16,938 bases of DNA from a virus (IMGVR_UViG_3300032334_002267:137310-154247); one strand, 5' to 3'. Positions 2,859 through 16,779 are shown, counted from the first letter of the stretch. Numbers and translations: made by a program. Notes: generated from the sequence alone by a model not told the origin.

Positions 2859-2894
2859 AACACCCTCGGAATATCCGGGGGTTTTTTGTGGGGT
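2859..2894 (+). terminator. intrinsic terminator with TTTTGTGGGGT tail
   Basis: ACCCTCGGA-ATA-TCCGGGGGT followed by a T-run and GTGGGGT. Confidence 0.85.
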
Positions 2895-2981
2895 TTGGAA
2901 GAATGAGAGTTAAAAGAAGTTTTGGATGTAGACATCTTCGAAACCGCGGGTTCTAAAAATTCCAAAAAAGTTGGATTAAAA

Positions 2982-3013
2982 TTTTTTTATCTCGAGATTT
3001 TACCTTATATTTG
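2982..3013 (+). promoter_or_regulatory. Bacteroidota promoter P2
   Basis: TTTTTTTAT-N15-TATATTTG. Confidence 0.85.
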
Positions 3014-3045
3014 TACCTATTATTAACTTAAATAAGTATTAAAAG

Positions 3046-3273
3046 ATGAGAAATCAAAATCGTCCGACCAATTACGCTAAGGTTAGCTATGGTCAAAAAT
3101 TGAGCATCGCAAATGCAGGTCGCCGTCGTGGGGATGTTTCAGATGTTGCTCGTAAAACTGGGTTTGCAATCAGCACAGTGAGCTACGTGTTGTCTGGTCG
3201 TTTCAAAAACGAGCGTATTGTAAATGCAGCTTACAACATTAGCCGCGGTCGTAAGGCTGCAGTTAAAGCTTAA
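3046..3273 (+). CDS. small basic helix-turn-helix DNA-binding protein (LacI/XRE-like HTH), 75 aa
   Basis: DVARKTGFAISTVSYVLSG matches the LacI-type HTH pattern (DVA--AGVS--TVS-VL-G). Monocistronic with its own promoter and terminator. Confidence 0.75.
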   Translation: MRNQNRPTNYAKVSYGQKLSIANAGRRRGDVSDVARKTGFAISTVSYVLSGRFKNERIVNAAYNISRGRKAAVKA

Positions 3274-3291
3274 GATCTGCCTTCAGAAATT

Positions 3292-3329
3292 AAAAAGTCC
3301 AGCTATCAAAGATATAGCTGGGCTTTTTT
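3292..3329 (+). terminator. intrinsic terminator (possibly bidirectional)
   Basis: AAAAAGTCCAGCTAT ... ATAGCTGGGCTTTTTT. Confidence 0.85.
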
Positions 3330-3375
3330 CTGATCGAAACGTTTTCAACAATTCCAACTATAAATACATATACAA

Positions 3376-3723
3376 ATGACCACCAAGATCCTCACATTAT
3401 TCCCAGAGCTTGATGACTGGACTAAAAAAATCTTCAGTCGGTCTTTCGTTGATTCATGTGCTAAGCATGTCACCGGACTTGGATATTCTTCTAAATTTAT
3501 TGGAGATCAAATTTGCATCATCGGTCCCGAGGGAGATAGCTCCTGTCAGCAGGGAACTCTTGTTGGATGGAGATTTGTAAACGATATAGAGAAATTCGTT
3601 TCCAGTAACGATATGCCATGGTTTGAATCGACGGGGAGAACTCCAGAGGAGTTGGCTAAAGGATTTGCCATCATTAGCCAGTTAGCTAGTATGGTTTCAA
3701 ATTTAATAATTCAGGATGAATAA
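3376..3723 (+). CDS. hypothetical protein, 115 aa
   Basis: ATG start, overlaps the next gene by 8 nt. Confidence 0.8.
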   Translation: MTTKILTLFPELDDWTKKIFSRSFVDSCAKHVTGLGYSSKFIGDQICIIGPEGDSSCQQGTLVGWRFVNDIEKFVSSNDMPWFESTGRTPEELAKGFAIISQLASMVSNLIIQDE

Positions 3724-3928
3724 GGAAGAACACGTAAAGTTGCTAGAGATTCTTGGTTTCACTAATGTGCGTGCGATAGAAACTAAAACACTATTTGGTG
3801 AAGATGATTGGGAGGTTTCATTCAGTTACAAAAACAAAAGATATCTAGTATATGGTATCTCTTTGGAGAATCTGATTTCAAAGTATAGTAAATTAAATAG
3901 AGAATTAATTATAGGAATATCAAAATGA
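3716..3928 (+). CDS. hypothetical protein, 70 aa
   Basis: Overlap-coupled to genes on both sides (ATGA at 3925-3928). Confidence 0.75.
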   Translation: MNKEEHVKLLEILGFTNVRAIETKTLFGEDDWEVSFSYKNKRYLVYGISLENLISKYSKLNRELIIGISK

Positions 3929-4218
3929 TTAAAAAGATTCTACTTCCGCTATTAGTTTTGACATTGGTCTCATGTCAACAAACCCAGGTTAAAAAGGATT
4001 CAGATATTGAAGTTATCAACCATGTTGTTTACAAGGTTAAATTCGATACACTAATCGTTAACTCGTGTGAGAGACATAAACCTGTCAGTGTCATGGATCA
4101 GATTAATCCAAGTTTCGATATTACCCTTAGTAACGGAAGAACAATGAGATCCCAACGGTCTATGCCCATTGGTGACACCATCTATACAAAAACACTAATT
4201 AAACAATGGCAGCAGTAG
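3925..4218 (+). CDS. putative lipoprotein, 97 aa
   Basis: MIKK, then hydrophobic ILLPLLVLT, then lipobox LVS-C: a signal peptidase II pattern. Confidence 0.75.
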   Translation: MIKKILLPLLVLTLVSCQQTQVKKDSDIEVINHVVYKVKFDTLIVNSCERHKPVSVMDQINPSFDITLSNGRTMRSQRSMPIGDTIYTKTLIKQWQQ

Positions 4219-4469
4219 ACTATAGGCTAATCACGATTGAGGTCGAAACAGTATTAGGAGAAAGCGAGGCTATAGACAAAGGCTTCTTTGAGTATCTAGA
4301 TGAGTACTCAATAATACCCAAGATACTAGAGAAGGAGGAGAATCAGGAATGGCCAATCGTTGAGTACACCAGCGGTCCCGTGTCGCTGAGCAATATGTTG
4401 AAAGAGAAGTTTGGAATGAGCAAAGAAGAAATAGAACAAAATTATCCACAACTTAAAAGAGATGAGTAA
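4206..4469 (+). CDS. acidic hypothetical protein, 87 aa
   Basis: ATG start, overlapping neighbours. Confidence 0.8.
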   Translation: MAAVDYRLITIEVETVLGESEAIDKGFFEYLDEYSIIPKILEKEENQEWPIVEYTSGPVSLSNMLKEKFGMSKEEIEQNYPQLKRDE

Positions 4470-4668
4470 CAATAGTATAAAAAAGTCTAAGGAGAAAGAG
4501 ATTAAGCTAGAGGTTGGAGAGTATTACAGAATAGACGGAGAGGTCTATTTAGTAGATGCCCTAACATACCTTTACGCCTATGTCTATCGAATAGACGAAA
4601 ACGGAGAACCTGTTGGCAGAGCCAGAATGATAGGTAGTCTCAAAAAAAGAAAAGTAGAAAAAGTTTAG
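4462..4668 (+). CDS. hypothetical protein, 68 aa
   Basis: ATG start overlapping the upstream gene by 8 nt. Confidence 0.75.
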   Translation: MSNNSIKKSKEKEIKLEVGEYYRIDGEVYLVDALTYLYAYVYRIDENGEPVGRARMIGSLKKRKVEKV

Positions 4669-4674
4669 TAAAAA

Positions 4675-4706
4675 TTTTTTTATTTGAAGAAGTTGATTTA
4701 CATTTG
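4675..4706 (+). promoter_or_regulatory. Bacteroidota promoter P3
   Basis: TTTTTTTAT-N15-TACATTTG. Confidence 0.85.
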
Positions 4707-4726
4707 GGACATAAACCAAATAAAAG

Positions 4727-5059
4727 ATGTACTATCAACTAGAACTCGCATGCACTACACCACATGACGAACCTTGCGCTCAAGTTGGATCTTTCAACTA
4801 TTCCAGCAGTTCCCGCACAGAAGCCAGAGCACTTATCAATCAACTAATTAGAGAGAACGGGAATCCACCAGAAGGTGTTGATTTCAAAATCAAATCCAAC
4901 CCTCACGACTTTGGGTCTTATCTGGATGTCGTTATCAGATTCGACGAGGACAACGAAGAACAATCAAATTACGCCTACCATATAGAAGGAGCTATTCCGG
5001 ACAAATGGGACAGCGAGGCTAAGAGAGAATTGGCTGAAGCCGGCTATACGCTAAATTAA
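4727..5059 (+). CDS. hypothetical phage protein, 110 aa (EPCAQVG / SNPHDFGSY motifs)
   Basis: Directly after P3. Motifs recalled from a recurrent phage family of unknown function; not verified by search. Confidence 0.85.
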   Translation: MYYQLELACTTPHDEPCAQVGSFNYSSSSRTEARALINQLIRENGNPPEGVDFKIKSNPHDFGSYLDVVIRFDEDNEEQSNYAYHIEGAIPDKWDSEAKRELAEAGYTLN

Positions 5060-5085
5060 TTTTTTAAAATCTTAAATTTTATATC

Positions 5086-5280
5086 ATGAGTAACGGATCA
5101 TTAAAAGGTTTCAAAGGAGACCAAAAAACAAGAGAACGCAGAACTAGAGTAATGGATCGTCTAGAGTCTCAGTTAAAGAGCGGAGTGAAAACAGTTAAAG
5201 GTGGCGGCACCGCAGAATTGGTTGACGGTGACGTGAAGCGCATTAACAAAGAATTATCAATTTTGAAAGAAAGAATCTAG
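5086..5280 (+). CDS. small basic hypothetical protein, 64 aa
   Basis: ATG with AT-rich leader. Confidence 0.8.
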   Translation: MSNGSLKGFKGDQKTRERRTRVMDRLESQLKSGVKTVKGGGTAELVDGDVKRINKELSILKERI

Positions 5281-5287
5281 TAAAAGA

Positions 5288-5319
5288 TTTTTTTATCTGA
5301 ACGAGAAGTCTTATCTTTG
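5288..5319 (+). promoter_or_regulatory. Bacteroidota promoter P4
   Basis: TTTTTTTAT-N15-TATCTTTG. Confidence 0.85.
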
Positions 5320-5340
5320 GGTTAAATCAAACTTAAAAAT

Positions 5341-5742
5341 ATGGGACGCTATTACACAGGTGACATTGAAGGTAAATTCTGGTTCGGAGTTCAATGCTCG
5401 GACGACGCTTCATTCTTCGGAGGATCGGAGGAAGAGGTTTATTTTGAAGACGAGGATGAAATTCCTTATGAGCTTCAGTACTTCTTTCAAACTGGAGACC
5501 TTGAAGAGATTAAGCATGGTATAGAAGAATGTATAATTCATCTTGGAGAGTATAAAATGAGATTGGATGATTTCTTTGCACAAAGAGATAGTTATAACGA
5601 CCAGATGATTATAGAGGCTTTTGAAATACCAAAGGAAAAGGTTTGGGAACTTCTGGTTTGGTATGCCCGATTGGAACTAGGAGTAAAGATTAAAGGATGT
5701 GTGGAGGAGAAAGGAGAATGTTCATTTAGCGCAGAACTCTAA
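5341..5742 (+). CDS. acidic hypothetical phage protein, 133 aa (MGRYYxGDIEGKFWFxVQ family)
   Basis: Directly after P4. The N-terminus is recalled from a recurrent phage family of unknown function. Confidence 0.85.
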   Translation: MGRYYTGDIEGKFWFGVQCSDDASFFGGSEEEVYFEDEDEIPYELQYFFQTGDLEEIKHGIEECIIHLGEYKMRLDDFFAQRDSYNDQMIIEAFEIPKEKVWELLVWYARLELGVKIKGCVEEKGECSFSAEL

Positions 5743-5748
5743 AACAAT

Positions 5749-6153
5749 ATGAAAAAAGAATTTATACCATACGAACAAGCACTTGCCTTAAAGAAACTAG
5801 GGTTTGATGAACCTTGTTTAGCACATCTTATTGGATTTGGAGATGGTACTATAGAAAATGATAAGTATTTCATTAAATATCAACAAGTGTTTTATCCTCA
5901 TGACAATATAAAATCAGATGACAAAGCAGAAGAATTAGAATTATATTCTTTTGGTATTTGTGGAGTTCCACTTTACCAACAAGCATTTAGATGGTTTAGA
6001 GAGAAGTATAATGTGCACATGTATCCAACAAAGTATGATGAAACAAAGTGGTGGGTTAATTGGGCTACTTGGACAAGTAAGGTTTTTGATACTTACGAAG
6101 AAGCTGAACTTGAATGTCTTAAAAAACTTATTGAAATTGTAAAAAACAAATAA
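5749..6153 (+). CDS. hypothetical phage protein, 134 aa, low GC
   Basis: Pattern KEFIPYEQALALKKLGFDEPC ... PLYQQAFRWFREK ... YEEAELECLKKLIEI, recalled as common in Bacteroidota phages. Confidence 0.85.
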   Translation: MKKEFIPYEQALALKKLGFDEPCLAHLIGFGDGTIENDKYFIKYQQVFYPHDNIKSDDKAEELELYSFGICGVPLYQQAFRWFREKYNVHMYPTKYDETKWWVNWATWTSKVFDTYEEAELECLKKLIEIVKNK

Positions 6154-6154
6154 C

Positions 6155-6385
6155 ATGAATACCACTATTCATGAATTCAAAGCTATCCTCAAAAAGGATT
6201 ACAAGGAGTATATGGATAGTATTAGACATGAGGACGATGCGATGCCGATGAGCGAATACCATTCAAACAACTCTGACTACTACGAGAAAGAGTACGGAAT
6301 CTATTGGGACGACCGGAAAGAGGAATGGTGTTATAATGAAAACAATAGTAACTACACTGAGGACGAAGATGATGAAGATTATTAA
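6155..6385 (+). CDS. acidic hypothetical protein, 76 aa
   Basis: ATG 1 nt after the upstream stop. Rich in D, E and Y. Confidence 0.75.
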   Translation: MNTTIHEFKAILKKDYKEYMDSIRHEDDAMPMSEYHSNNSDYYEKEYGIYWDDRKEEWCYNENNSNYTEDEDDEDY

Positions 6386-6402
6386 AAAAAAACCTCTAAA
6401 TA

Positions 6403-6434
6403 TTTTTTTATTTCAAAAAGATTGATTACCTTTA
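6403..6434 (+). promoter_or_regulatory. Bacteroidota promoter P5 (variant -7)
   Basis: TTTTTTTAT-N15-TACCTTTA, one mismatch from TAnnTTTG. Confidence 0.7.
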
Positions 6435-6454
6435 CAACCTAAAAACAAATACAT

Positions 6455-6898
6455 ATGGCAACACGTTCAAGAATCGCAATCGAAAACCAAGACGGAACAG
6501 TTAATTCAATTTACTGTCACTGGGATGGTTATCCATCTAACAATGGAGAAATTTTATTCAACAATTACAAAACCCAAGAGAAGGTGGAATCCTTAATAGA
6601 ACTTGGGAGCATCTCGTCCCTTAGACCACAGGTTGAAATTCCTGAAGGAGTGCAACACACTTTTGAAAATCAGAATGATGACATCACAGTAGCTTATCAC
6701 CGAGACCGAGGTGAAGATCTAAGCATCTCATCACATAAGAATGCTGAAGATTTCATGAGAAGCGATGTTGAGGAGTATGGCTATCTTTTCACAGCAGCAG
6801 GAGAATGGTTATTTGTTAACGGACACGTTAATGAATCAAAGAGGGAGTTTCAAACTCTAAGATCTGTGTTAAGTAAAGATGCGACTGTGAGTTATTAA
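6455..6898 (+). CDS. hypothetical phage protein, 147 aa (MATRSRI...YCHWDGYP family)
   Basis: The MxTRSxI and YCHWDGYP motifs recur in phage and mobile-element proteins of unknown function. Confidence 0.9.
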   Translation: MATRSRIAIENQDGTVNSIYCHWDGYPSNNGEILFNNYKTQEKVESLIELGSISSLRPQVEIPEGVQHTFENQNDDITVAYHRDRGEDLSISSHKNAEDFMRSDVEEYGYLFTAAGEWLFVNGHVNESKREFQTLRSVLSKDATVSY

Positions 6899-6920
6899 GC
6901 ATAGTTTGGTTTGGTTGATA

Positions 6921-6962
6921 GGACCAATTGGTCCAGAGCCCGGGATATCCCGGGCTTTTTTT
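6921..6962 (+). terminator. tandem palindromes; the second is an intrinsic terminator
   Basis: GGACCAATTGGTCC (6921-6934), then AGCCCGGGATATCCCGGGCT (6937-6956) followed by a T-run. Confidence 0.85.
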
Positions 6963-6986
6963 ATTTTTAAAATATCCGTCCAAATA

Positions 6987-7018
6987 TTTTTATCTTTGAA
7001 TAGTTTTATTTACATTTG
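6987..7018 (+). promoter_or_regulatory. Bacteroidota promoter P6
   Basis: T-run starts 24 nt upstream of TACATTTG (7011-7018). Confidence 0.75.
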
Positions 7019-7039
7019 GGTTAATTAAAACAAACTTAT

Positions 7040-7249
7040 ATGTGGAATCCATCATTTCAATCATTCGGTATAGTTAGAGTAGAAACTGACCGAGTTAGAG
7101 TTTTCAAAGATCAGTACAATTCAGTTACGGTCCATGTCGGTCAAAGGGTAACACAAGCCCACTGGGACGGCGGAGTACTCAACGTTTATTTAGCCAACGG
7201 TTCCGTGAGACGCTACATCGACTACATAAATTTCATTACGATCTATTAA
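7040..7249 (+). CDS. hypothetical protein, 69 aa, beta-rich
   Basis: ATG after P6 with an AAAACAAAC leader. Confidence 0.85.
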   Translation: MWNPSFQSFGIVRVETDRVRVFKDQYNSVTVHVGQRVTQAHWDGGVLNVYLANGSVRRYIDYINFITIY

Positions 7250-7269
7250 CAAAAAATTCTCAGATAGGA

Positions 7270-7301
7270 TTTTTCTATTTAAAAAGTTTATCTTACATTT
7301 G
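7270..7301 (+). promoter_or_regulatory. Bacteroidota promoter P7
   Basis: TTTTTCTAT-N15-TACATTTG. Confidence 0.8.
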
Positions 7302-7331
7302 CTTTATTAATCAAACTTAAATTTAAAAACT

Positions 7332-8342
7332 ATGGCATTTAAAGAACCAACCGGGCAAAGAAAACCCATGACAGAGGAGGCTAAAGCCCGCATAGCAGAG
7401 GCTATGCGCCAAGCAGCAATACGTAAGCGTATTGAGCAAGGCTTACCACCAACCCCAGTTACACCAACCCCATCAGCACCAACCTTCGTGGAGAAACCAC
7501 TAGAGCTTGTTAAGATGAAGGACCAGGAGTTTCCTGACGATCTATTTGTACCCATGAAGACCGGCAAACCGGTAGACCTACTCTTCACTACTGACGGAGG
7601 TATACCTAAGGCTTGCAACTTCATGCTTATCGGAGATCCGGGGGTAGGTAAATCAACGGTTTCGTTGGACATCCTTTCCGACTTGGCTATCGCAGGTCAT
7701 AAAGTACTTTTCATTTCCGCTGAAATGACTCGCATCGATCTTCATGGATATGTTAAACGCTATCCAAAGTTTGGAGAGGTTGATATTCTATTTACCGGAG
7801 AGTATTGCGACAGCAATCCAAAGAACGTAATAGAGAAGGCACTTCAGCCAGGATACGATGTGGTTCTGATTGACTCTTTTGCAGAGGTTCAAGAGGACAT
7901 AAAAGAGACCCTAAAGTTCTCGACCACCGGTTCCGAAAAATGGCTGATCGATCTGATGGTTTCTCACAACCTTGGAAACAACGACACTAAAACCAATACC
8001 ACCTTCATTGCTATCCAACAGGTTACTAAGGGTGGTGTCTTCGTCGGTTCCAATAAACTCAAGCACAACACAACGGGTATGATGGAGCTTAGATTTGATC
8101 AAGAGTCTTCAACTCAGTATATCACGTTCACTAAAAACCGTAGAGGTACAGCGGGTAAGCGTATGTTCTATTCTCTATCTGAAACAGGAGATGTTAAATA
8201 TGACTCTGTTAGGTTTAGCAACGATGAGAATGCAAGAGAAGCTTTAGCCCACGAACGATCACTGATTGAGAGCGAGGGAGAAGTCTTTGATGATCTGATA
8301 TTCGGAGGACAACCCCAACTTCAACCTGATTTTATGAGTTAG
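7332..8342 (+). CDS. RecA-superfamily P-loop ATPase, RadA/Sms-like core (no Zn finger, no Lon-like domain), 336 aa
   Basis: Walker A GDPGVGKST, LFISAEM, Walker B VVLIDS, GSNKLKH and KNRRG (compare KNRFG in RadA/Sms). The N-terminus has a basic helix and a Pro/Thr linker. Confidence 0.85.
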   Translation: MAFKEPTGQRKPMTEEAKARIAEAMRQAAIRKRIEQGLPPTPVTPTPSAPTFVEKPLELVKMKDQEFPDDLFVPMKTGKPVDLLFTTDGGIPKACNFMLIGDPGVGKSTVSLDILSDLAIAGHKVLFISAEMTRIDLHGYVKRYPKFGEVDILFTGEYCDSNPKNVIEKALQPGYDVVLIDSFAEVQEDIKETLKFSTTGSEKWLIDLMVSHNLGNNDTKTNTTFIAIQQVTKGGVFVGSNKLKHNTTGMMELRFDQESSTQYITFTKNRRGTAGKRMFYSLSETGDVKYDSVRFSNDENAREALAHERSLIESEGEVFDDLIFGGQPQLQPDFMS

Positions 8343-8350
8343 TCTAAAAA

Positions 8351-8384
8351 AAGTCCGCTTAATATTTTTTTATTAAGCGGACTT
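8351..8384. repeat. perfect 14-bp inverted repeat enclosing the -33 T-tract of P8
   Basis: AAGTCCGCTTAATA-TTTTTT-TATTAAGCGGACTT. Confidence 0.95.
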
Positions 8385-8396
8385 GTATTATATTTG
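8365..8396 (+). promoter_or_regulatory. Bacteroidota promoter P8
   Basis: TTTTTTTAT-N15-TATATTTG. Confidence 0.85.
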
Positions 8397-8421
8397 CATA
8401 ACAAACAAAAATTTAAGTCAT

Positions 8422-9516
8422 ATGTCAAAGTATCAAACAATTTCACAAACAGTATTCGATCAAAGAGCTAAAGAAGCCGTAGATCGCACACCAATCCGTA
8501 AAGCATTTCCGCTTAAGAACATTGAGGTGGTTAACAACTCTACACTTAGCCTTGATGGCAAACAGGTCAGCATGACAGCCGACGCATTCAAAGGCATCTG
8601 TAAGATAGTAGGTCTTCCGGTTGGTTTTGATAAAACGTTTAGCTCAGCCTTCGGAGAAAAGGCTAGACAACAATTAGTTAACAGGTTAAAGACTGCAGCT
8701 CAGGCTAAGGGTAACACTGAGGTTTCATTGGTACTCAATCCTTCAAACCGTTCCATCGTTGGAGTTCAAAAAGATCCAAGAGACTTGGTTTCAAACCAAA
8801 CATTCTTAGACACCTCTACATCTATTATAAATAAGTATGGTCTGGAGGTTAACGACTTCTCCATCGGTTTCGACGGAGGAGTAACGATCAACACTTCTTC
8901 TCCTAAAAACGTTTGGAGTTTAGAAGGTCTAAAAGATGAAGAGTTCTTTGGAGGAGTAACCTTTTCAAACTCACCAAACGCAGGCTTTGAAGTTAGTCCT
9001 TATCTATATCGATTGGTCTGCGCAAACGGTATGATCGGTAACGCATTCGAAGAAACATTACGTCTTGGTCAAATGGACGGGTTTACAATGGAGAAGTTTT
9101 GGACTAATCTAAATAGCTTAGCAGAGACAGGCTTCCGTCCGGCTAAATTCGAAGCTTCAGTTCGTAATGCTATGAACACTAGAGCATCTCTATCAGAACT
9201 TGAAATTGCCCACGATTACCTTAAGTCATATTCTGACGCAGAACATAAGGAGTTGGAAGCTTGGGTGCCTCTTCATAACACCCGTGCTCGTTTCCACACT
9301 GCTGGCATCGACACGATTACAATGTCACCAGCCCAGAAGAAGGGAGCTAAGACCGGAACAAATGTTTGGGACTTGGTTAATGGTATGACTCACTTTGCAT
9401 CTCACGACAATGGCTTTAAAATCGAAGATAAAAATCGTCGTCTTCTGCAAGTTAAAGCAGCCGATATACTGACTAAGAAGTATGACATGGCTAACATTAT
9501 TCCGAGTCCGTTTTAA
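8422..9516 (+). CDS. DUF932-like (phage/plasmid-type) protein, 364 aa (start moved from 8383 to ATG 8422)
   Basis: YRLVCANGM and VWDLVNGMTHFASH resemble the RLVCxNG and xWxxxNxxT motifs of DUF932. The track start at 8383 lies inside promoter P8. Confidence 0.65.
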   Translation: MSKYQTISQTVFDQRAKEAVDRTPIRKAFPLKNIEVVNNSTLSLDGKQVSMTADAFKGICKIVGLPVGFDKTFSSAFGEKARQQLVNRLKTAAQAKGNTEVSLVLNPSNRSIVGVQKDPRDLVSNQTFLDTSTSIINKYGLEVNDFSIGFDGGVTINTSSPKNVWSLEGLKDEEFFGGVTFSNSPNAGFEVSPYLYRLVCANGMIGNAFEETLRLGQMDGFTMEKFWTNLNSLAETGFRPAKFEASVRNAMNTRASLSELEIAHDYLKSYSDAEHKELEAWVPLHNTRARFHTAGIDTITMSPAQKKGAKTGTNVWDLVNGMTHFASHDNGFKIEDKNRRLLQVKAADILTKKYDMANIIPSPF

Positions 9517-9538
9517 TCTTAAATAATCGCTAATATCG

Positions 9539-9568
9539 AAGGTCCCTTAATTGGGACCTTTTTTGTGG
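9539..9568 (+). terminator. intrinsic terminator with TTTTGTGG tail
   Basis: AAGGTCCC-TTAATT-GGGACCTT-TTTT-GTGG. Confidence 0.85.
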
Positions 9569-9579
9569 CCCCCGTAAAG

Positions 9580-9613
9580 ATAGTATAGTACTAAGATACC
9601 ACGCTCGCGAGAG
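9580..9613 (+). repeat. 34-nt conserved motif B, copy 1 of 3
   Basis: ATAGTATAGTACTAAGATACCACGCTCGCGAGAG. 28 of 34 positions are invariant across the copies at 9580, 12575 and 16378. Confidence 0.9.
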
Positions 9614-9620
9614 TGCGCGT

Positions 9621-9780
9621 AAACCGTTGGATGACCCTCGCATGTAAGAGAATCAACAAGAATAATAATAGCTAAGCTGTAGTTCAGATAAGCTGAAACC
9701 GTTGGATGGCCCTCGCATGTAAGAGAATCAACAAGAATAATAATAGCTAAGCTGTAGTTCAGATAAGCGGAAACCGTTGG
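9621..9780 (+). repeat. 75-nt tandem duplication (2 units plus 10 nt), each unit starting with a half-site of the 21-bp palindrome
   Basis: Units start at 9621, 9696 and 9771, each with AAACCGTTGG. Units 1 and 2 differ at 2 positions. Confidence 0.95.
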
Positions 9781-9872
9781 TTGAACATCATCAATCAAAG
9801 GTGTAAAGATGACATTTACAGGCTTTGGAGGAATGGTAACTTTAGATTAATTAAGTACATCCGCAATAATAG

Positions 9873-9900
9873 AAGAGTCCGTGAAAACGGACTTTTTTGT
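9873..9900 (+). terminator. intrinsic terminator with GAAA tetraloop
   Basis: AGTCCGT-GAAA-ACGGACT followed by TTTTTGT. No obvious gene lies upstream of it. Confidence 0.75.
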
Positions 9901-9918
9901 TTCCGATCGGAATCGGAC

Positions 9919-9939
9919 GGAACTGTTGTCAACGGTTCC
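9919..9939. promoter_or_regulatory. 21-bp palindrome (motif A), copy 1
   Basis: GGAACTGTTG-T-CAACGGTTCC. Confidence 0.8.
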
Positions 9940-10013
9940 GCGCTGGGAAGATGTTGGGTTTTCGGTTTGACATCTTTGGATTTATAAGGCTATAGAAATT
10001 AATCAGTTAGATA

Positions 10014-10045
10014 TTTTTTTATACTGATTCTTTTGATTACTTTTG
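10014..10045 (+). promoter_or_regulatory. Bacteroidota promoter P9
   Basis: TTTTTTTAT-N15-TACTTTTG. Confidence 0.85.
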
Positions 10046-10067
10046 CATCCAATAAAACAAACCACAT

Positions 10068-10223: not shown

Positions 10224-10225
10224 TC

Positions 10226-10414
10226 ATGACCCCAGAAAAAATAAAAGAAGCAGCATCTAAACTCACGGTATCTAAATTCATACTTTGGTCTGAGGATATG
10301 AAACTAAACCCTGTTATAACCAACCGTGATGAAGTATTCAATGTTAACCTTGATGAAGTCCACTTAGATGTGGGAGGAATATCACTAATATTCATTAACG
10401 GAAAAATTTCCTAA
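10226..10414 (+). CDS. hypothetical protein, 62 aa
   Basis: ATG 2 nt after the upstream stop. Confidence 0.75.
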   Translation: MTPEKIKEAASKLTVSKFILWSEDMKLNPVITNRDEVFNVNLDEVHLDVGGISLIFINGKIS

Positions 10415-10418
10415 TAAA

Positions 10419-10450
10419 TTTTTACATCTGGAAATAAATTCTTAATTTTG
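10419..10450 (+). promoter_or_regulatory. Bacteroidota promoter P10
   Basis: TTTTTACAT-N15-TAATTTTG. Confidence 0.75.
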
Positions 10451-10480
10451 CACTATTATTAATCAAAAAAAAACACAACT

Positions 10481-10861
10481 ATGGGCTTAGACATGTATGC
10501 AAACCACACCAAATTTAAACCTGAATCACAAGTTGATTTTCAAGTTCCCGAAGAATTAGAGAATGAAGAATTCCAGTACTGGCGTAAGCATCCAAACCTT
10601 CATGGATGGATGGAAGATCTTTATCGTAAAAAAGGCGGTTCTGATGAATTCTTCAACTGTGTAAACGTTCAGTTAACAGAAGAGGATTTAAACAATCTGG
10701 AAAAAACCATTAAAGATAATGAGCTACCCGGAACTATGGGTTTCTTTTTCGGGGAATCCTCAGGGGATGAGGAAGAGGTAAATGAAGATCTTGCTTTCAT
10801 TGAAAATGCCAAAAGACTTATCCAAGAAGGCAATACGGTTTATTACAGTTCTTGGTGGTAA
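10481..10861 (+). CDS. hypothetical phage protein, 126 aa (MGLDMY...YWRKHPNLHGWM...FFFG...YxSWW family)
   Basis: Characteristic motifs of a recurrent phage family of unknown function. Monocistronic unit. Confidence 0.9.
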   Translation: MGLDMYANHTKFKPESQVDFQVPEELENEEFQYWRKHPNLHGWMEDLYRKKGGSDEFFNCVNVQLTEEDLNNLEKTIKDNELPGTMGFFFGESSGDEEEVNEDLAFIENAKRLIQEGNTVYYSSWW

Positions 10862-10883
10862 AAAGCTAACCATTAAAAACATC

Positions 10884-10922
10884 AAAGAAGACTTTTCGGG
10901 GTCTTCTTTTTTTTTGTGGGGT
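10884..10922 (+). terminator. intrinsic terminator with TTTTGTGGGGT tail
   Basis: AAAGAAGACTT-TTCG-GGGTCTTCTTT, T9, then GTGGGGT. Confidence 0.85.
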
Positions 10923-10960
10923 CTTTCTTCAACTCCGTCCTGATATCAGAGCCATCTTAG

Positions 10961-10981
10961 GGAACCGCTGCCAACGGTTTC
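10961..10981. promoter_or_regulatory. 21-bp palindrome (motif A), copy 2
   Basis: GGAACCGCTG-C-CAACGGTTTC. Confidence 0.8.
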
Positions 10982-11040
10982 GCGGATGATGCAGCTGATC
11001 TGCAGCTGAAATTTTTCCCTGATTATAAGATATAGTAATC

Positions 11041-11373
11041 ATGGAAGAGAGAAGAAGAATACTTGATATTTCAAAAGAGGTAGAATATCCAAAAGAATTC
11101 TACAGCTTCGCCAACGGTGTCGACATCTCGAATCCAGAAATCAATAGATGGATCAGAGAATGTTTTGAGACCCTCCGACTTCAGATTCTTGAAGACCCTA
11201 CAAAATCACATCATAGTTATATGGGTTCTGGTAACGCTATAATTATCATATGGGCATATCCTCAATCTGATGGTACGTTTGAAGTTGAGTTCACTGTTTC
11301 TAAAAACTATTCAACATACAGCATCTTCGGTTTCGACCCTCTTGTTGACGAAGGGTTCGAAGAAATTAAATAA
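11041..11373 (+). CDS. hypothetical protein, 110 aa
   Basis: ATG start. No TAnnTTTG promoter upstream. Confidence 0.8.
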   Translation: MEERRRILDISKEVEYPKEFYSFANGVDISNPEINRWIRECFETLRLQILEDPTKSHHSYMGSGNAIIIIWAYPQSDGTFEVEFTVSKNYSTYSIFGFDPLVDEGFEEIK

Positions 11374-11390
11374 AAAAAGTTCCCAAAATA

Positions 11391-11422
11391 TTTTTTTATC
11401 TTGTATAGATTTATTATCTTTG
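11391..11422 (+). promoter_or_regulatory. Bacteroidota promoter P11
   Basis: TTTTTTTAT-N15-TATCTTTG. Confidence 0.85.
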
Positions 11423-11451
11423 GGATGTCGAAGCTTTTAAAAACAAATAAG

Positions 11452-11592
11452 ATGAATCAAATAATATTAATTATAATTTTTTTTATTACAATAGCGTATC
11501 TAATTTATTTAGGAAATAAAAAAAATCCAATGTCAATATCAGCAGCAGAGGATATAAAGAAAATGAATGAAGATTTAAAAAACTTTGAATAA
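11452..11592 (+). CDS. small membrane peptide, 46 aa (start moved from 11401 to ATG 11452)
   Basis: MNQIILIIIFFITIAYLIYLG forms a single hydrophobic helix. The track start lies inside P11. Confidence 0.7.
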   Translation: MNQIILIIIFFITIAYLIYLGNKKNPMSISAAEDIKKMNEDLKNFE

Positions 11593-11622
11593 ACCTTAAT
11601 TTATAATCTAAACACACAAACT

Positions 11623-12096
11623 ATGGGCTGGTGGTCAACAGATATTTTAGGAGGAGATACTCCCCTAGATTTCAAATCAGAATTTTACAGTAAATTAAAA
11701 CTTGATCAATTCAAGGACAAAGGTGACAAGGTTAAAACCGCCTTTGAGAAATACCAAAAGAAGTTCGTGAGTGATGGGGAGATGGATAACATCCTAAACA
11801 AATGGGGGTGCGGAGAACCTGATGAATCATTCTATCGAGATCATAAGAGTATAGGATACCAGGTCCTAGCTGTTATCCTAATGGAGAATGGATGTCAGAT
11901 ATCTTACGATTTGAAGGACATTATGCTAAATTGGATTCCCACGGACAATTGGGCTTCAGAAGATGACGAGAGAAAGACAACCATTCAAAATCTCGTAAAG
12001 ACTTTAACCGCCTATGACGGCAGTGTTCCGTTTAAAATTAAATCAAAAGGACTTTTCGAAGTTTGGGCAGAAAAAATACAAAACAAGAATATATGA
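11623..12096 (+). CDS. hypothetical protein, 157 aa (MGWWS..ILGGDTPLD N-terminus)
   Basis: ATG with an AAACACACAAACT leader. The N-terminus loosely recalls DUF4259-type MGAWG...D-A-D; weak. Confidence 0.85.
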   Translation: MGWWSTDILGGDTPLDFKSEFYSKLKLDQFKDKGDKVKTAFEKYQKKFVSDGEMDNILNKWGCGEPDESFYRDHKSIGYQVLAVILMENGCQISYDLKDIMLNWIPTDNWASEDDERKTTIQNLVKTLTAYDGSVPFKIKSKGLFEVWAEKIQNKNI

Positions 12097-12395
12097 AATT
12101 AAAAACAGCTTACTCCGAATACGACGTTATCCTTTCCTGGGGAAAGTATGGTAACGGACGCAAAGCATTAGAAATTATTGACTCTGAAGATGGATTCCCT
12201 GTTATGGTTGCCACAGTCAACATTCCCGAGGTTCCGTTGACCGAGAACGAAGTTATCATCAAGAACTATTCAGAGAACGAGGGAGTGCTGGAATTCCTAC
12301 AGGAGAATGGAATTGTAGGACCGGTTAAGAGAGAGGTGGGAACAGGATTCGTTTCTTTTCCTGTTGTTGACGTTTACACGTCAAGCGATGTTTAA
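12093..12395 (+). CDS. DUF4313-like protein, 100 aa (start moved from 12063 to ATG 12093)
   Basis: ATGA overlap with the upstream stop. Pattern Y-NG--AL-I ... ATVNI ... IKNYSEN ... L-ENGI ... GF--FP recalls DUF4313. Confidence 0.6.
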   Translation: MKLKTAYSEYDVILSWGKYGNGRKALEIIDSEDGFPVMVATVNIPEVPLTENEVIIKNYSENEGVLEFLQENGIVGPVKREVGTGFVSFPVVDVYTSSDV

Positions 12396-12416
12396 TGAAT
12401 AAAGATTTTAAATAGG

Positions 12417-12560
12417 ATGAAAGATTATATAGCGTATAAAATAGAAACGTACATAAAATACAATAATTATAATTTCTACAAGATTAGAAAAAAATTAAAA
12501 AGTTTAGGTTTATTTTTAGATAAGCCTGCACTTATTAAAAGGCTAAGAGGTTTAAAATAA
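12417..12560 (+). CDS. small basic hypothetical protein, 47 aa, very low GC
   Basis: MKDYIAYKIETYIKYNNYNFYKIRKKLKSLGLFLDKPALIKRLRGLK*. Fills the gap after 12395. Not in the track. Confidence 0.6.
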   Translation: MKDYIAYKIETYIKYNNYNFYKIRKKLKSLGLFLDKPALIKRLRGLK

Positions 12561-12574
12561 CTTCATCCCAAAAC

Positions 12575-12608
12575 ATAGTATGGTGGTAAGATACTACGCC
12601 CGCGAGAG
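12575..12608 (+). repeat. 34-nt conserved motif B, copy 2 of 3
   Basis: ATAGTATGGTGGTAAGATACTACGCCCGCGAGAG. The 3' part can fold as CCGC-GAGA-GCGG. Confidence 0.9.
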
Positions 12609-12658
12609 CGGACACGTTAAGATTTAAGAAAAATCATAAAGATTTAAAAAAGATTCAT

Positions 12659-12666
12659 TACCTTTG
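12659..12666 (+). promoter_or_regulatory. Bacteroidota -7 element P12 (lacks the -33 T-tract)
   Basis: TACCTTTG followed by the typical TCCCAACCAAAAAACAAACAC leader. Confidence 0.7.
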
Positions 12667-12687
12667 TCCCAACCAAAAAACAAACAC

Positions 12688-13065
12688 ATGAAAAGTATCA
12701 AAGTTAGGTTCAATCTAGGAAGGGGCAAGAATTATCTAAAGTGGAAGATCGAGTATCCAGATAAGAGAGTGGAGTACTTAGACCCAAATGCGATCCAGCT
12801 AACCATGCATGGATGCAAGCTAAAGAACAATCCCAAAACAGCAGAGAGAATATATCAGGGCCAAAGCAAAACGGTTTGCGCTTGGGTTCTCTGCAACCGA
12901 ATTGAGCTAACCCGCGGTTCCCTCCACTGCATCCAGAGTCCAGATTCCTGGGTTTACTACAATCCTAAGAATTTCCCCAACTGGGTTTACCAAGGTCATA
13001 ACGCCGACGGTTTCGAGTTCGACCGAATCCAGAGTTTAGGTTCTAAACTTTATGTTATAAGCTAA
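12688..13065 (+). CDS. hypothetical phage protein, 125 aa (KVRFNLGRGKNY-KWK family; start moved from 12664 to ATG 12688)
   Basis: The track start overlaps the -7 box. ATG 12688 has the canonical leader. Confidence 0.85.
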   Translation: MKSIKVRFNLGRGKNYLKWKIEYPDKRVEYLDPNAIQLTMHGCKLKNNPKTAERIYQGQSKTVCAWVLCNRIELTRGSLHCIQSPDSWVYYNPKNFPNWVYQGHNADGFEFDRIQSLGSKLYVIS

Positions 13066-13096
13066 TAAATCTTTAACGAAAAAAATAGGAAAAAGA

Positions 13097-13128
13097 TTTC
13101 TGTAATTGGAAAAGATGTATTATATTTG
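13097..13128 (+). promoter_or_regulatory. Bacteroidota promoter P13
   Basis: ATTT at the conserved distance, then TATATTTG (13121-13128). Confidence 0.75.
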
Positions 13129-13148
13129 CATAACAAAAAACATTCTAT

Positions 13149-13631
13149 ATGGTACACACAACCCCTAAAAAAAGATGGAGCAAATTGGAAGACAGCTACA
13201 TCATCCTTTCTCTTCAGAAAGGTTTAACAACTTCCGAAATCGCAAAAACCCTTAATCGCACATCCGGATCAGTTTCAACCCGAAAATGGGCATTGGGCTT
13301 AGAGGGTAGGTTCAAAAGTTCTGAAAGAGGAACCAAAATACAATCTACTAAAAGAATTGGTTTGGTTCAGGAGCCTAACCCGGAGTTTGTAGAAACATTC
13401 AAACTTGAAAGTGGAATTCCAATTCCTACTAGAAAAGAGAAAAACCCGGAGGCAAAAGAAAGAGCAAGATTTATCTTTAATCAAATGAAACCCGGTCAAT
13501 CATTTGTAGTTCCAAAATCTGATTTGTACTTTGTAAAAGCAGTTTACAAAGCAGAGTTTGAAGCTTACAAAATCAAAATTACACCAACCTTACCAAATGG
13601 AAAATTTTTCAGGATTTTTAGAGTAGCATAA
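13149..13631 (+). CDS. putative two-domain DNA-binding protein, 160 aa, with an N-terminal Myb/SANT- or GcrA-like HTH
   Basis: KRWSKLEDSYI ... GLTTSEIAKTLNRTSGSVSTR matches W(S/T)xxED ... xxxEIAxxLxRTxxSV. The C-terminal part has LESGIPIP ... MKPGQSFVVP. Confidence 0.7.
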   Translation: MVHTTPKKRWSKLEDSYIILSLQKGLTTSEIAKTLNRTSGSVSTRKWALGLEGRFKSSERGTKIQSTKRIGLVQEPNPEFVETFKLESGIPIPTRKEKNPEAKERARFIFNQMKPGQSFVVPKSDLYFVKAVYKAEFEAYKIKITPTLPNGKFFRIFRVA

Positions 13632-13649
13632 TAGGTGTTTGTTTTGGTT

Positions 13650-13687
13650 AAGGGACTCTTAAAAAAGAGTCCCTTTTTTTGTGGGGT
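13650..13687 (+). terminator. intrinsic terminator with TTTTGTGGGGT tail
   Basis: AAGGGACTCTT-AAAA-AAGAGTCCCTT, T-run, then GTGGGGT. Confidence 0.9.
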
Positions 13688-13723
13688 CAAATCTGGAAAA
13701 ACCCAAAACCCTGTTACAGTCTC

Positions 13724-13744
13724 GGAACTGCTGTCAACGGTTCC
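13724..13744. promoter_or_regulatory. 21-bp palindrome (motif A), copy 3
   Basis: GGAACTGCTG-T-CAACGGTTCC. Confidence 0.8.
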
Positions 13745-13757
13745 GGCACTTTTGGTG

Positions 13758-13787
13758 TTTCAGTAGTTTCCAGTAGTTTTCAGTAGT
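13758..13787 (+). repeat. 10-nt tandem repeat TT(T/C)CAGTAGT x3
   Basis: TTTCAGTAGT TTCCAGTAGT TTTCAGTAGT. Confidence 0.9.
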
Positions 13788-13808
13788 AGATAAATATTGT
13801 CTGAAATA

Positions 13809-13840
13809 TTTTTTTATTCAGAAACTATTTATTACTTTTG
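13809..13840 (+). promoter_or_regulatory. Bacteroidota promoter P14
   Basis: TTTTTTTAT-N15-TACTTTTG. Confidence 0.85.
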
Positions 13841-13861
13841 TCCCAACAAAAATAAACACAC

Positions 13862-14191
13862 ATGCAAAAGAAAATCACTTACACAGCAAAAGGTAACGTC
13901 CTTGGAAATTTTTGGGGAGGTGGAAGAGGAGCTTACCCAACCGTAGTTATCACTGGAGATTCAATTGAAGAGATTCAAGAAAAAGCAGAGAAGGCTTTAA
14001 AAGACGGAAGTCTAGATTCCGGTATGGGATACGAAAGCTTGATAGGAGCAGTTCTTGATGTTGAAGTAAAGACACAAATTACTGTTGACGATAAACCTTT
14101 CTTCAACAGGGAATGGGAACAAATCTTAGTTGGAGAACTGGATGAGATGGATTACGAGTTTTTAACAGGTTGCAATTTCGAATTAAACTAA
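13862..14191 (+). CDS. hypothetical phage protein, 109 aa (GNFWGGG / DGSLDSGMG motifs)
   Basis: Follows P14 with the canonical leader. Confidence 0.9.
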   Translation: MQKKITYTAKGNVLGNFWGGGRGAYPTVVITGDSIEEIQEKAEKALKDGSLDSGMGYESLIGAVLDVEVKTQITVDDKPFFNREWEQILVGELDEMDYEFLTGCNFELN

Positions 14192-14196
14192 ACAAT

Positions 14197-14496
14197 ATGA
14201 AAAGAGGAGACCAATATTTAGGCAGAGAGATTCTTCACACTGAGGAGTTTCCGGCCGCGGGAACATTTCAAGCATTCTATAATGCTGAGGCCCGTTTAAA
14301 AGATTTAGGATACACAACAGGTTCTATGGCTCGAACGGAGCCAATAGGATTTGCTGATGCAGACAAATACGATTATGTGGCTAAGTGGTATAAGATAAGC
14401 CCGGAGGAGAAGGCTCTTTTAGATGGAGTTATGGTAAGTAAAGATTTCAGAGAAGGTGGAGTTACAATAGTATTCTTTACACCTCCAAAATATTAA
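14197..14496 (+). CDS. hypothetical phage protein, 99 aa (GTF-A ... GSM ... PIG ... YVAKW ... LDG ... FREG; start moved from 14170 to ATG 14197)
   Basis: ATG 5 nt after the upstream stop, with an AAACAAT leader. Confidence 0.85.
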   Translation: MKRGDQYLGREILHTEEFPAAGTFQAFYNAEARLKDLGYTTGSMARTEPIGFADADKYDYVAKWYKISPEEKALLDGVMVSKDFREGGVTIVFFTPPKY

Positions 14497-14514
14497 ATTT
14501 GGGTTTTGGGTTGG

Positions 14515-14545
14515 AAGCAGACTTCGGTCTGCTTTTTTTGTGGGT
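14515..14545 (+). terminator. intrinsic terminator with UUCG loop and TTTTGTGGGT tail
   Basis: AAGCAGAC-TTCG-GTCTGCTT, T-run, then GTGGGT. Confidence 0.9.
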
Positions 14546-14582
14546 AAAACCAAAGCTTATTGCAGCTATGCTAGCAGGAGGA

Positions 14583-14603
14583 GAAACCGTTGTCAACGGT
14601 TCC
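14583..14603. promoter_or_regulatory. 21-bp palindrome (motif A), copy 4
   Basis: GAAACCGTTG-T-CAACGGTTCC. Confidence 0.8.
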
Positions 14604-14667
14604 GCGATTGCATTCTCGATCAGGGAAAAGAAGGTTGGAAATATTTTTTTGAAATCTCTCAAATTTA

Positions 14668-14699
14668 TTTTTTTATCTGAAGAAGTTTAATTACATTTG
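14668..14699 (+). promoter_or_regulatory. Bacteroidota promoter P15
   Basis: TTTTTTTAT-N15-TACATTTG. Confidence 0.85.
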
Positions 14700-14719
14700 C
14701 TCCAACAAAAACACACATC

Positions 14720-15019
14720 ATGAAAGTTATTCTAAACGAGGGTATTAAACCTTCATCATCAAACGGAGGACGTTTTCAGGACATTATCATTGTCAATGAA
14801 AAGAAAGAGAAATTCAGAATTTATATTCTGTCAGAATCTCACGAATCCCAATCCTACGCCCGTCTATACAAATGGACCAACGAAAAAGGCTGGGAGGTAA
14901 TAACGTCAAAGAACCCTAAGAGGGATTACAAGATTGATATCTCATATCAGTCAAGTTATCCTCAGAGCGCATTCAATCGTATTATTTCAGACCTAACCGC
15001 AATCGCTGAACATTTTTAA
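14720..15019 (+). CDS. hypothetical protein, 99 aa
   Basis: Follows P15 with the canonical leader. Confidence 0.85.
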   Translation: MKVILNEGIKPSSSNGGRFQDIIIVNEKKEKFRIYILSESHESQSYARLYKWTNEKGWEVITSKNPKRDYKIDISYQSSYPQSAFNRIISDLTAIAEHF

Positions 15020-15022
15020 ACT

Positions 15023-15063
15023 AAAAAAAATCTGTAATTTATTTTTTATTACAGATTTTTTTT
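15023..15063. repeat. perfect 16-bp inverted repeat (terminator-like) overlapping promoter P16
   Basis: AAAAAAAATCTGTAAT-TTATTTTTT-ATTACAGATTTTTTTT. Confidence 0.95.
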
Positions 15064-15073
15064 CTTATCTTTG
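15042..15073 (+). promoter_or_regulatory. Bacteroidota promoter P16
   Basis: T-run starts 24 nt upstream of TATCTTTG (15066-15073). Confidence 0.8.
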
Positions 15074-15095
15074 CACCAACAAAACCTATATAATT

Positions 15096-15308
15096 ATGAC
15101 AAACGAACAATCAGCAATCTTCAGAAAGGTACTAGATACCAATTGGGAAGTTAAAGAGTTAACAGAATCCAGCAGATGGATAGAAGCAATAGAAAAGGCA
15201 AAAGAGCTTGATAGGCTAAAATCCGAACTCAAAGAATCGATGGGTGAATATGAGTACAACAAGTTCATGGACACTGGACGTAAAATGTTTTCCCCTGCCG
15301 AAGACTAA
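15096..15308 (+). CDS. hypothetical protein, 70 aa, helical
   Basis: Follows P16. Confidence 0.85.
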   Translation: MTNEQSAIFRKVLDTNWEVKELTESSRWIEAIEKAKELDRLKSELKESMGEYEYNKFMDTGRKMFSPAED

Positions 15309-15359
15309 CACCTATAGTATTCTTTAATCAAAATTTCACACACTAAAATTGCAATCACC

Positions 15360-15701
15360 ATGGCAAAGAAACAAAAAAAACTAAACAGAAAAATCCAAGA
15401 GATCTTTGGATCCGTCATCTCTTCAGAATCCTCAGTGTTCTCAAAGGAAGATGTGCTAAGACTTTTAGAAGAGGTAAACGAAGCTGCGGAAAAGAAAACT
15501 TCAATATCTCAGGATCAATTGGATGACCTATCGGAAAGGATATCAACTGCAATTTCATATGTGGATGGCTTAGATCTTGTTGATGATTACTGTCTTGAGA
15601 TGGATGGAAATTGTGTTGAGATACGCAGTCTTGATCTTGACGGTGACCAGATTAAAGAAATTATAGATGAAGCTATCTCAGAATGGGAAGATGAAATTTA
15701 A
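15360..15701 (+). CDS. acidic hypothetical protein, 113 aa
   Basis: ATG start, followed by a terminator. A degenerate promoter may lie at 15320-15351 (TTCTTTAAT-N15-TAAAATTG). Confidence 0.85.
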   Translation: MAKKQKKLNRKIQEIFGSVISSESSVFSKEDVLRLLEEVNEAAEKKTSISQDQLDDLSERISTAISYVDGLDLVDDYCLEMDGNCVEIRSLDLDGDQIKEIIDEAISEWEDEI

Positions 15702-15722
15702 GAGTTAGTGTGTTTGTTTGTT

Positions 15723-15759
15723 AAAGATCCCAACTTCGGTTGGGGTTTTTTTTGTGGGT
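15723..15759 (+). terminator. intrinsic terminator with UUCG loop and TTTTGTGGGT tail
   Basis: GATCCCAAC-TTCG-GTTGGGGTT, T-run, then GTGGGT. Confidence 0.9.
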
Positions 15760-15802
15760 TGAGTTCGTGACGTGCTCACTTGAAACGTCATATGACGTCT
15801 GC

Positions 15803-15823
15803 GGAACCGATGCCAACGGTTCC
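15803..15823. promoter_or_regulatory. 21-bp palindrome (motif A), copy 5
   Basis: GGAACCGATG-C-CAACGGTTCC. Confidence 0.8.
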
Positions 15824-15881
15824 TCTCCAGCTGAGCAAACCAGCTGAGCGAAATTCGATTCTGAAAATATCCAGCTTGGAA

Positions 15882-15913
15882 TTTTTTTTATTGAAAGGTA
15901 ATCATTACTTTTG
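15882..15913 (+). promoter_or_regulatory. Bacteroidota promoter P17
   Basis: T8 run starts 24 nt upstream of TACTTTTG (15906-15913). Confidence 0.85.
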
Positions 15914-16759: not shown

Positions 16760-16779
16760 AAAATAATTCACCCAAATAA

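Follow-up and report, generated by a model that had tools for sequence, protein, structure and literature searches.

The last 16.9 kb (16,938 nt, the window) of the 154,247-bp virus record IMGVR_UViG_3300032334_002267 in IMG/VR contain a series of intergenic spacers in which a terminator, a 21-bp near-palindrome and a promoter follow each other in the same order, which raises the question whether such a module serves as a shared regulatory platform for the adjoining genes or as a joint at which gene cassettes are recombined. An earlier note on this DNA had left both answers standing and had proposed a counterpart of the promoter plus stem-loop cassettes (PeSLs). In T4-type phages, PeSLs are linkers in which a terminator stem-loop is joined to a strong early promoter; they lie in one orientation in hyperplastic ORFan regions and to which indels, replacements and permutations between relatives map (PMC2839356, PMC4122927), and Arbiol et al. 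2010 speculated that the stem-loop may act as a dedicated recombination site (PMC2839356). The evidence presented here favours a putative protein-binding regulatory site with recombination as a by-product: we assign a probability of roughly 0.45 to the reading that the near-palindrome is a putative binding site of a phage-encoded protein that would regulate or insulate the transcription units of the region. The modules as a whole are probably PeSL-like linker cassettes that carry an extra, lineage-specific and putatively protein-bound site.

The conserved 21-bp palindrome GGAACCGTTGnCAACGGTTCC described in the earlier note is present in five window copies, all intergenic: scanning with GGAACCGTTGTCAACGGTTCC at up to three mismatches gives matches at 9919, 10961, 13724, 14583 and 15803, 200 shuffles of the window gave none, and a scan of the full 154,247 bp revealed no sixth copy. 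The order of terminator, palindrome and promoter holds for these copies, with a T-tract promoter in four of the five; in module 2 (10961) no T-tract promoter follows the palindrome, and a partial ATATA box precedes the ATG at 11041. Counted from the first G of GTGG, the distances from terminator to palindrome were reproduced as 45, 43, 43 and 49 nt, as were the 89, 89 and 83 nt from the palindrome end to the TAnnTTTG (-7) box and the layout of the copy at 9919, which lies 20 nt after a GTTT-tailed terminator and 99 nt before its -7 box. The window terminators were confirmed as hairpin terminators, and TTTTTGTGG occurs six times in the window against 0.3 expected. Direct repeats are present in three spacers (10990-11009, 13757-13787 and 15827-15849). 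The variable palindrome that had been placed ahead of the conserved one is strong in two spacers (CTGATATCAG at 10940-10949 and ACGTCATATGACGT at 15785-15798) and is neither general nor family-wide. The two supposed degenerate modules fared differently: the stretch 2859-3013 holds a collapsed palindrome that lacks its centre and whose syntenic counterpart in G001, the closest relative, is a full copy, and the stretch 9539-9630 reduces to half-sites inside a 75-bp tandem repeat. The features of the window, by coordinates and strand, are as follows.

2862..2891, plus strand: terminator hairpin with T-run and GTGG, upstream decayed module
2936..2952, no strand: collapsed palindrome GAAACCG-CGGGTTCT, outer arms kept, upstream of a small gene with a weak, sub-threshold helix-turn-helix match
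9535..9568, plus strand: terminator hairpin with T-run and GTGG after the DUF932-like gene
9617..9784, plus strand: 75-bp tandem repeat, 2.2 copies, with three half-sites AAACCGTTGG 75 bp apart
9876..9900, plus strand: module 1 terminator hairpin with T-run, GTTT tail
9919..9939, no strand: palindrome copy 1, GGAACTGTTGTCAACGGTTCC
10014..10045, plus strand: module 1 promoter, T-tract and TAnnTTTG
10884..10919, plus strand: module 2 terminator hairpin with T-run and GTGG
10961..10981, no strand: palindrome copy 2, GGAACCGCTGCCAACGGTTTC
10990..11009, plus strand: direct repeat TGCAGCTGA, two copies (10990-10998, 11001-11009), period 11, read directly
13650..13684, plus strand: module 3 terminator hairpin with T-run and GTGG
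13724..13744, no strand: palindrome copy 3, GGAACTGCTGTCAACGGTTCC
13757..13787, plus strand: direct repeat, 10-nt unit, 3.2 copies
13809..13840, plus strand: module 3 promoter
14515..14543, plus strand: module 4 terminator hairpin with T-run and GTGG
14583..14603, no strand: palindrome copy 4, GAAACCGTTGTCAACGGTTCC
14668..14699, plus strand: module 4 promoter
15723..15757, plus strand: module 5 terminator hairpin with T-run and GTGG
15803..15823, no strand: palindrome copy 5, GGAACCGATGCCAACGGTTCC
15827..15849, plus strand: direct repeat CCAGCTGAGC, two copies (15827-15836, 15840-15849), period 13, read directly
15882..15913, plus strand: module 5 promoter

That the composite is not the product of a recent duplication, as the earlier note had argued, is borne out by the window, by complete relatives and by metagenome relatives, in which it forms a conserved family architecture. 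CheckV puts the 154-kb record, of which the window is the cut end, at 55% completeness. Megablast found nothing that matched the window among 50,697 phage records. The window proteins led to IMG/VR relatives of 319-373 kb and to many metagenome contigs, and the closest of these reach at most 79% amino-acid identity for a RecA/KaiC-like ATPase (7332-8342) and at most 71% for a DUF932-like protein (8422-9516), which together form a conserved gene pair; the public runs that contain the window are labelled freshwater metagenome. Two complete relatives, G001 (348.6 kb) and G002 (373.5 kb, with terminal repeats), were compared. In the window, in G001 and in G002 the site-bearing stretch surrounds, and mostly follows, the ATPase/DUF932 pair, and the confinement to one region is pronounced: 20 of the 22 matches in G001 to its own variant lie inside 74.2-96.9 kb, all seven copies of the G002 variant inside 296.3-306.1 kb, and all five copies of the 154-kb record in its final 7 kb, so that in the complete relatives the palindromes occupy one 10-23-kb stretch of tiny genes. 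Past position 9516 of the window the majority of genes are without a counterpart in either complete relative, and those that are shared stand in permuted order. The same order (terminator, about 20-50 nt, site, promoter) was found in L077, L078, L079, L096, L104 and L115. The site itself is uniform in type within each genome and differs between lineages, the type GGAACCGTTGnCAACGGTTCC being found in the window and L078, AACCGyTGTCAACGTTCC in G001, ACACCGTyGnCrACGGTGT in G002, L077, L079, L096 and L115 (the type of most relatives other than L078), and GAGGAACCCCCG, at the same position, in L036 and L039, the most distant relatives with 55-57% ATPase identity. Sites may also be paired or arrayed, 73-75 bp apart in L078 and 108 bp apart in G001. 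The window spacers resemble one another only in their terminator tail, 21-bp site and 32-bp promoter and are otherwise unrelated. A comparison of L029 with L079 (83% nucleotide identity) shows that their orthologous spacers keep terminator, palindrome, ELEM2 (a second conserved repeat described below) and promoter and that the DNA between these elements has diverged, with indels. Moreover, the palindrome is retained upstream of shared genes despite different neighbours, as for window gene 13862 (G1_34574) and window gene 15932 (G1_27191).

The palindrome is the only element specific to these spacers, because GTGG terminators and T-tract promoters also occur without it. The GTGG-tailed terminator, which the earlier note had counted as a module part, is the commonest terminator flavour genome-wide, with many sites that have no palindrome behind them: hairpin, T-run and GTGG combine at 8 of 35, 10 of 62 and 6 of 69 terminator-like sites in the three genomes examined. 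T-tract promoters number at least 17 in the window and mostly lack a palindrome. Nor did the fixed spacing of about 89 nt between palindrome and promoter survive comparison with the family. Among 72 pattern matches, some of them poor and scattered, the distance from site to -7 box ranges from 54 to 191 nt (37 matches with an early promoter) and that from the GTGG end to the site core from 19 to 48 nt, mostly 31-44 (35 matches with a terminator), and helical phasing of the palindrome-promoter distance is absent (R = 0.07 at 10.5 bp). Since the family spacing is variable and unphased, the 89, 89 and 83 nt of the window are not a conserved property. Two side observations concern these flanking elements. 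GTGG is the commonest tetranucleotide behind terminator-like hairpins in G000, G001 and G002, and GTGG (or GTTG) after the T-run is very frequent in the intrinsic terminators of the family, including those between late genes. In the 70 nt downstream of the palindromes at all loci, ACATCT was seen 16 times against 1.7 expected, and CAGCTG and CATCTG are enriched there as well, often as short direct repeats with a 10-13-nt period; these may be sites of a second factor, and tandem copies make the counts non-independent.

The pattern of variation within the site bears on whether it is read as DNA or as a hairpin. In 12 distinct window-type copies only the left arm varies and the right arm CAACGGTTCC is nearly invariant, and 99 of 120 cells are paired, where shuffles average 99.6; for the 19 distinct copies of the ACACC type the count is 148 of 190 cells against 153.7 expected, and two bases out from the centre C/A occurs eight times, T/G six times and a Watson-Crick pair three times. 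GTTGnCGAC is the reverse complement of GTCGnCAAC, so that the two forms represent one slightly asymmetric site in both orientations, and the ACACC-type copies occur in both about equally. None of the 31 distinct copies shows compensating arm changes, and because the arms vary without compensation, selection acts on the sequence as double-stranded DNA and not on a stem. As in an operator, the site is dyad-symmetric, conserved in sequence and used in either orientation, with the L036-type variant as the exception. A hairpin in RNA or single-stranded DNA, which might be a back-up terminator, a signal for RNA processing or stability, or an element like the repetitive extragenic palindromic (REP) sequences, could account for the fact that the window copies fold at -8.3 to -13.7 kcal/mol and that three of the five beat nearly all shuffles, and the site lies 30-50 nt beyond the terminator, within reach of read-through RNA. 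We consider it very unlikely nevertheless: two of the five copies fold no better than shuffles, no T-run follows the palindrome, mismatched combinations dominate the variable position, the L036-type variant is not self-complementary, and Rfam returned from the window only a tRNA above threshold and nothing for the palindrome, so that neither compensating changes nor a family match mark the palindrome as a structured RNA element. With REP sequences and bacterial interspersed mosaic elements the site shares the lineage-specific palindromes just beyond gene ends, whereas its arms are uncompensated and its far fewer copies are limited to one region. The array of small same-strand genes with imperfect inverted repeats between them also resembles integron attC sites; however, attC keeps structure and not sequence, and here sequence is kept and structure is not. 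The chance is smaller still that the palindrome is a selfish or neutral repeat without function which spreads with duplicated spacers. In G001, at least five modules have about 45 nt of spacer upstream of the site in common, a sign of recent duplication, yet in the window and L078 the flanks are unrelated and the site is kept, it persists in lineages that share no more than 57-71% identity in their DUF932 proteins, and it outlasts replacement of its flanks, both in L029 versus L079 and in the strain variant X3 described below.

The order of gene blocks differs from relative to relative, and the joints lie at palindromes, promoters and terminators, as the idea of a recombination joint would predict; a local alignment by its nature stops at a shared element, so that the coincidence of joints and elements is partly built in and the joints mark the crossovers only approximately. 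Window and G001 are collinear up to 9516 and permuted beyond, the window genes 13862, 14197, 15096, 15932 and 16831 corresponding to G001 positions 34574, 29386, 32390, 27191 and 33737. Between L029 and L079, a block bounded by palindromes on both sides and a block bounded by promoter and terminator stand in swapped order, and L096 differs from L115 in a swap of two genes behind one common palindrome-promoter. For variation among strains, contigs of four public runs from other studies were used, which cover the window at 88-100% identity and all preserve the module order. Run X3 keeps palindrome 4 and has 80 unrelated letters in place of the 85 nt behind it (14605-14689); the replacement begins one base past palindrome 4 and stops at the -7 box (joint 14604>14690). 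Other strain joints run from promoter to promoter (13839>1711, 16792>7291) or lie at ELEM2 (16407>11429). These observations, together with the RecA/KaiC-like ATPase gene that adjoins the region, support the view that the palindrome serves mainly for recombination, either as a homology patch in the PeSL model or as the dedicated target of a phage protein that stimulates exchange. Several points speak against it: a patch of 15-21 bp is short for homologous exchange, and the model has no need of a near-palindrome; of the strain-level joints listed, fewer lie at palindromes than at promoters, ELEM2 and a tRNA end; neither tyrosine (PF00589) nor serine (PF00239) recombinases were found in G000 or in the complete relatives G001 and G002, in searches whose controls gave matches; and selection for evolvability alone would be a weak force for keeping 20 identical copies. 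On balance we regard this explanation as unlikely, although it is the strongest competitor. A bolder version, in which a dedicated phage protein recognises the near-palindrome and cuts or pairs the sites, so that cassettes would be exchanged between co-infecting phages in an integron-like manner without a recombinase and possibly with the RecA/KaiC-like ATPase and its DUF932 partner, appears rather improbable. Unlike integrons, these phages encode no tyrosine recombinase, and their cassettes carry their own promoters and terminators. The remaining alternative, in which a phage sigma factor of a middle class would use the site as a directional promoter element, giving each unit a second start upstream of the host-type promoter, is likewise improbable, if a shade less so. 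It draws on a sigma-70-like factor of 304 aa (regions 1.2-4) encoded on the opposite strand beside the far end of the palindrome region in both complete relatives (L188:1342-2256, at 70.3-71.2 kb of G001, and about 311.6 kb of G002), on an ECF-like (extracytoplasmic function) sigma factor of 177-214 aa and a third, weak region-2 match that are also encoded, with a further sigma locus at L190:1231-1764 (74.9-75.4 kb of G000), and on the GGAAC contained in the arms, which is the usual ECF -35 core. In addition, the window-type and G001-type copies lie nearly all in one orientation, and some modules lack a T-tract promoter, namely 10961 in the window and examples in G001 and G002. Such promoterless modules, however, have an ATATATA-type box before the ATG (full in G001 and G002, partial in the window), and anything from about 40 to 250 nt separates the site from the start codon. 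A promoter role is thus possible and not favoured, because inspection of the consensus on either strand showed no second conserved, -10-like element at a fixed distance and because the ACACC-type copies point both ways within one lineage.

The preferred reading, a site bound by a phage-encoded regulator, has to be set against several findings as well. Neither the conserved neighbouring genes, which carry no DNA-binding domain, nor the helix-turn-helix candidates at 3046-3273 and 13149-13631, which do not track the motif type across relatives, supply an obvious reader, so that no cognate protein follows the site among the candidates examined. L034 and L035 have the ATPase/DUF932 pair and few or no sites in the DNA examined, and the variant GAGGAACCCCCG is not palindromic. 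The almost uniform direction of the window-type and G001-type copies relative to the genes weighs against a symmetric operator, since operator symmetry does not require it. Finally, the large, variable (54-191 nt) and unphased distance to the promoter makes the contacts of a classical activator unlikely. Among possible readers, the 75-aa protein of 3046-3273 has a weak LacI-type helix-turn-helix match (E 9e-4, below the cut-off), and its gene immediately follows the first module both in the window, where that module is collapsed, and in G001; homologues were found only in G001, L035 and L077. When 35 proteins from the region and from its relatives were compared with Pfam and PHROGs, no DNA-binding protein emerged convincingly, the partial exceptions being this helix-turn-helix match and the N-terminus of a 'D5-like regulator', and the ESM Atlas gave DUF932 and a weak DUF8033 as leads. 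A protein with a ParB_N domain was not found in these phages, and a search for MotA (MotCF) was blank in every genome, as was its control, so that this blank carries no information. Among bacteria (185,579 species) the palindrome turns up at 66 scattered places, never more than once per genome, so that a host regulon is not visible. An exact-pattern scan of viral contigs gave 23 single matches in unrelated contigs, which were taken as chance.

Two known systems are comparable. The KorB OB operators of plasmid RK2 are palindromes upstream of many promoters that act at variable distance, and the present site is comparable in its many intergenic copies of one palindrome, its variable and unphased distances and its single gene set; it differs in sequence, and these phages lack the ParB_N protein. 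In phage phi29, p4 sites are inverted repeats upstream of early and late promoters through which the transcription programme is switched, and a phage regulator on inverted repeats upstream of promoters would look the same here; p4 sites, however, are few and at fixed positions, whereas up to about 20 sites at variable distance are found here. We thus picture the modules as linkers of a hyperplastic small-gene region in a freshwater jumbo phage family, in which each unit would be closed by an intrinsic terminator and the next would open with a 15-21-bp near-palindrome, often short direct repeats, and a promoter. A sequence-specific phage protein, probably a dimer, would recognise the near-palindrome in its double-stranded form and may act on the units of the region as a group by shutting them off, switching them on or insulating them from read-through, whatever its distance from the promoter and the helical face on which it sits. 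Since the palindrome, promoter and terminator repeats recur many times in one orientation, they could in addition serve as homologous-recombination patches that reshuffle gene blocks.

The idea of a PeSL counterpart stands in part. As with PeSLs, the modules separate small genes of poor conservation within a hyperplastic region, four of the five window modules combine in one spacer a terminator and an early-type promoter, each recognised at the sequence level, and swaps and indels between relatives, with blocks permuted, fall at the cassettes, a coincidence partly built in by alignment ends. Unlike PeSLs, the window copies are not conserved near-continuously over about 100 bp (some G001 copies do have about 65 nt in common), and a separate near-palindrome of 15-21 bp, conserved alone and lineage-specific, stands between terminator and promoter; furthermore, the site is limited to one variable region, and the promoter is of the Bacteroidota TAnnTTTG type with T-tract. 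It is in hyperplastic regions that large phages carry most of their unknown genes, and the regulation and reshuffling of these regions are known only from the work on PeSLs in T4 relatives of the coliphage and vibriophage type. The same linker logic would here extend to phages whose predicted hosts belong to a different bacterial phylum, with a discrete lineage-specific site added to it. Such a site defines a candidate set of co-regulated early genes, and its edges are predicted exchange points. Should its reader be a regulator, an ordinary though new phage regulon would be at hand; should the reader promote exchange, the mechanism of gene shuffling would be new.

Further observations concern other elements of the window. 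ELEM2, the second conserved repeat, is about 34 nt long (ATAGTATGGTnnTAAnATACnnCGCnCGCG) and lies at 9580-9613, 12575-12610 and 16378-16411; it is present also in G001, G002, L077 and L079, often between palindrome and promoter and once immediately upstream of tRNA-Ile, and has no Rfam match. The gene-free stretch 9569-9900 between two terminators contains ELEM2, the 75-bp tandem repeat with its three half-sites and an AT-rich stretch. A lone right half-site CAACGGTTCC at 7195-7204 lies inside gene 7040-7249, and the -7 box of the ATPase promoter follows about 90 nt downstream; the half-site lacks conservation in G001 and possibly arose by chance. Three pieces of the window vary among the strain runs. 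A 162-bp piece (11428-11589) that encodes a small hydrophobic peptide is missing from this place in all four runs and is joined behind an ELEM2 copy in two, and it may be a mobile mini-cassette. Downstream of tRNA-Ile(UAU), 16492-16777 with gene 16511-16759 is replaced by 257 other letters in X3 and X5. The gene 5749-6153 (134 aa) is precisely missing in X5 and X10, where six other letters stand instead of 5746-6153, and it recruits many extra high-depth contigs, as a widespread mobile gene would.

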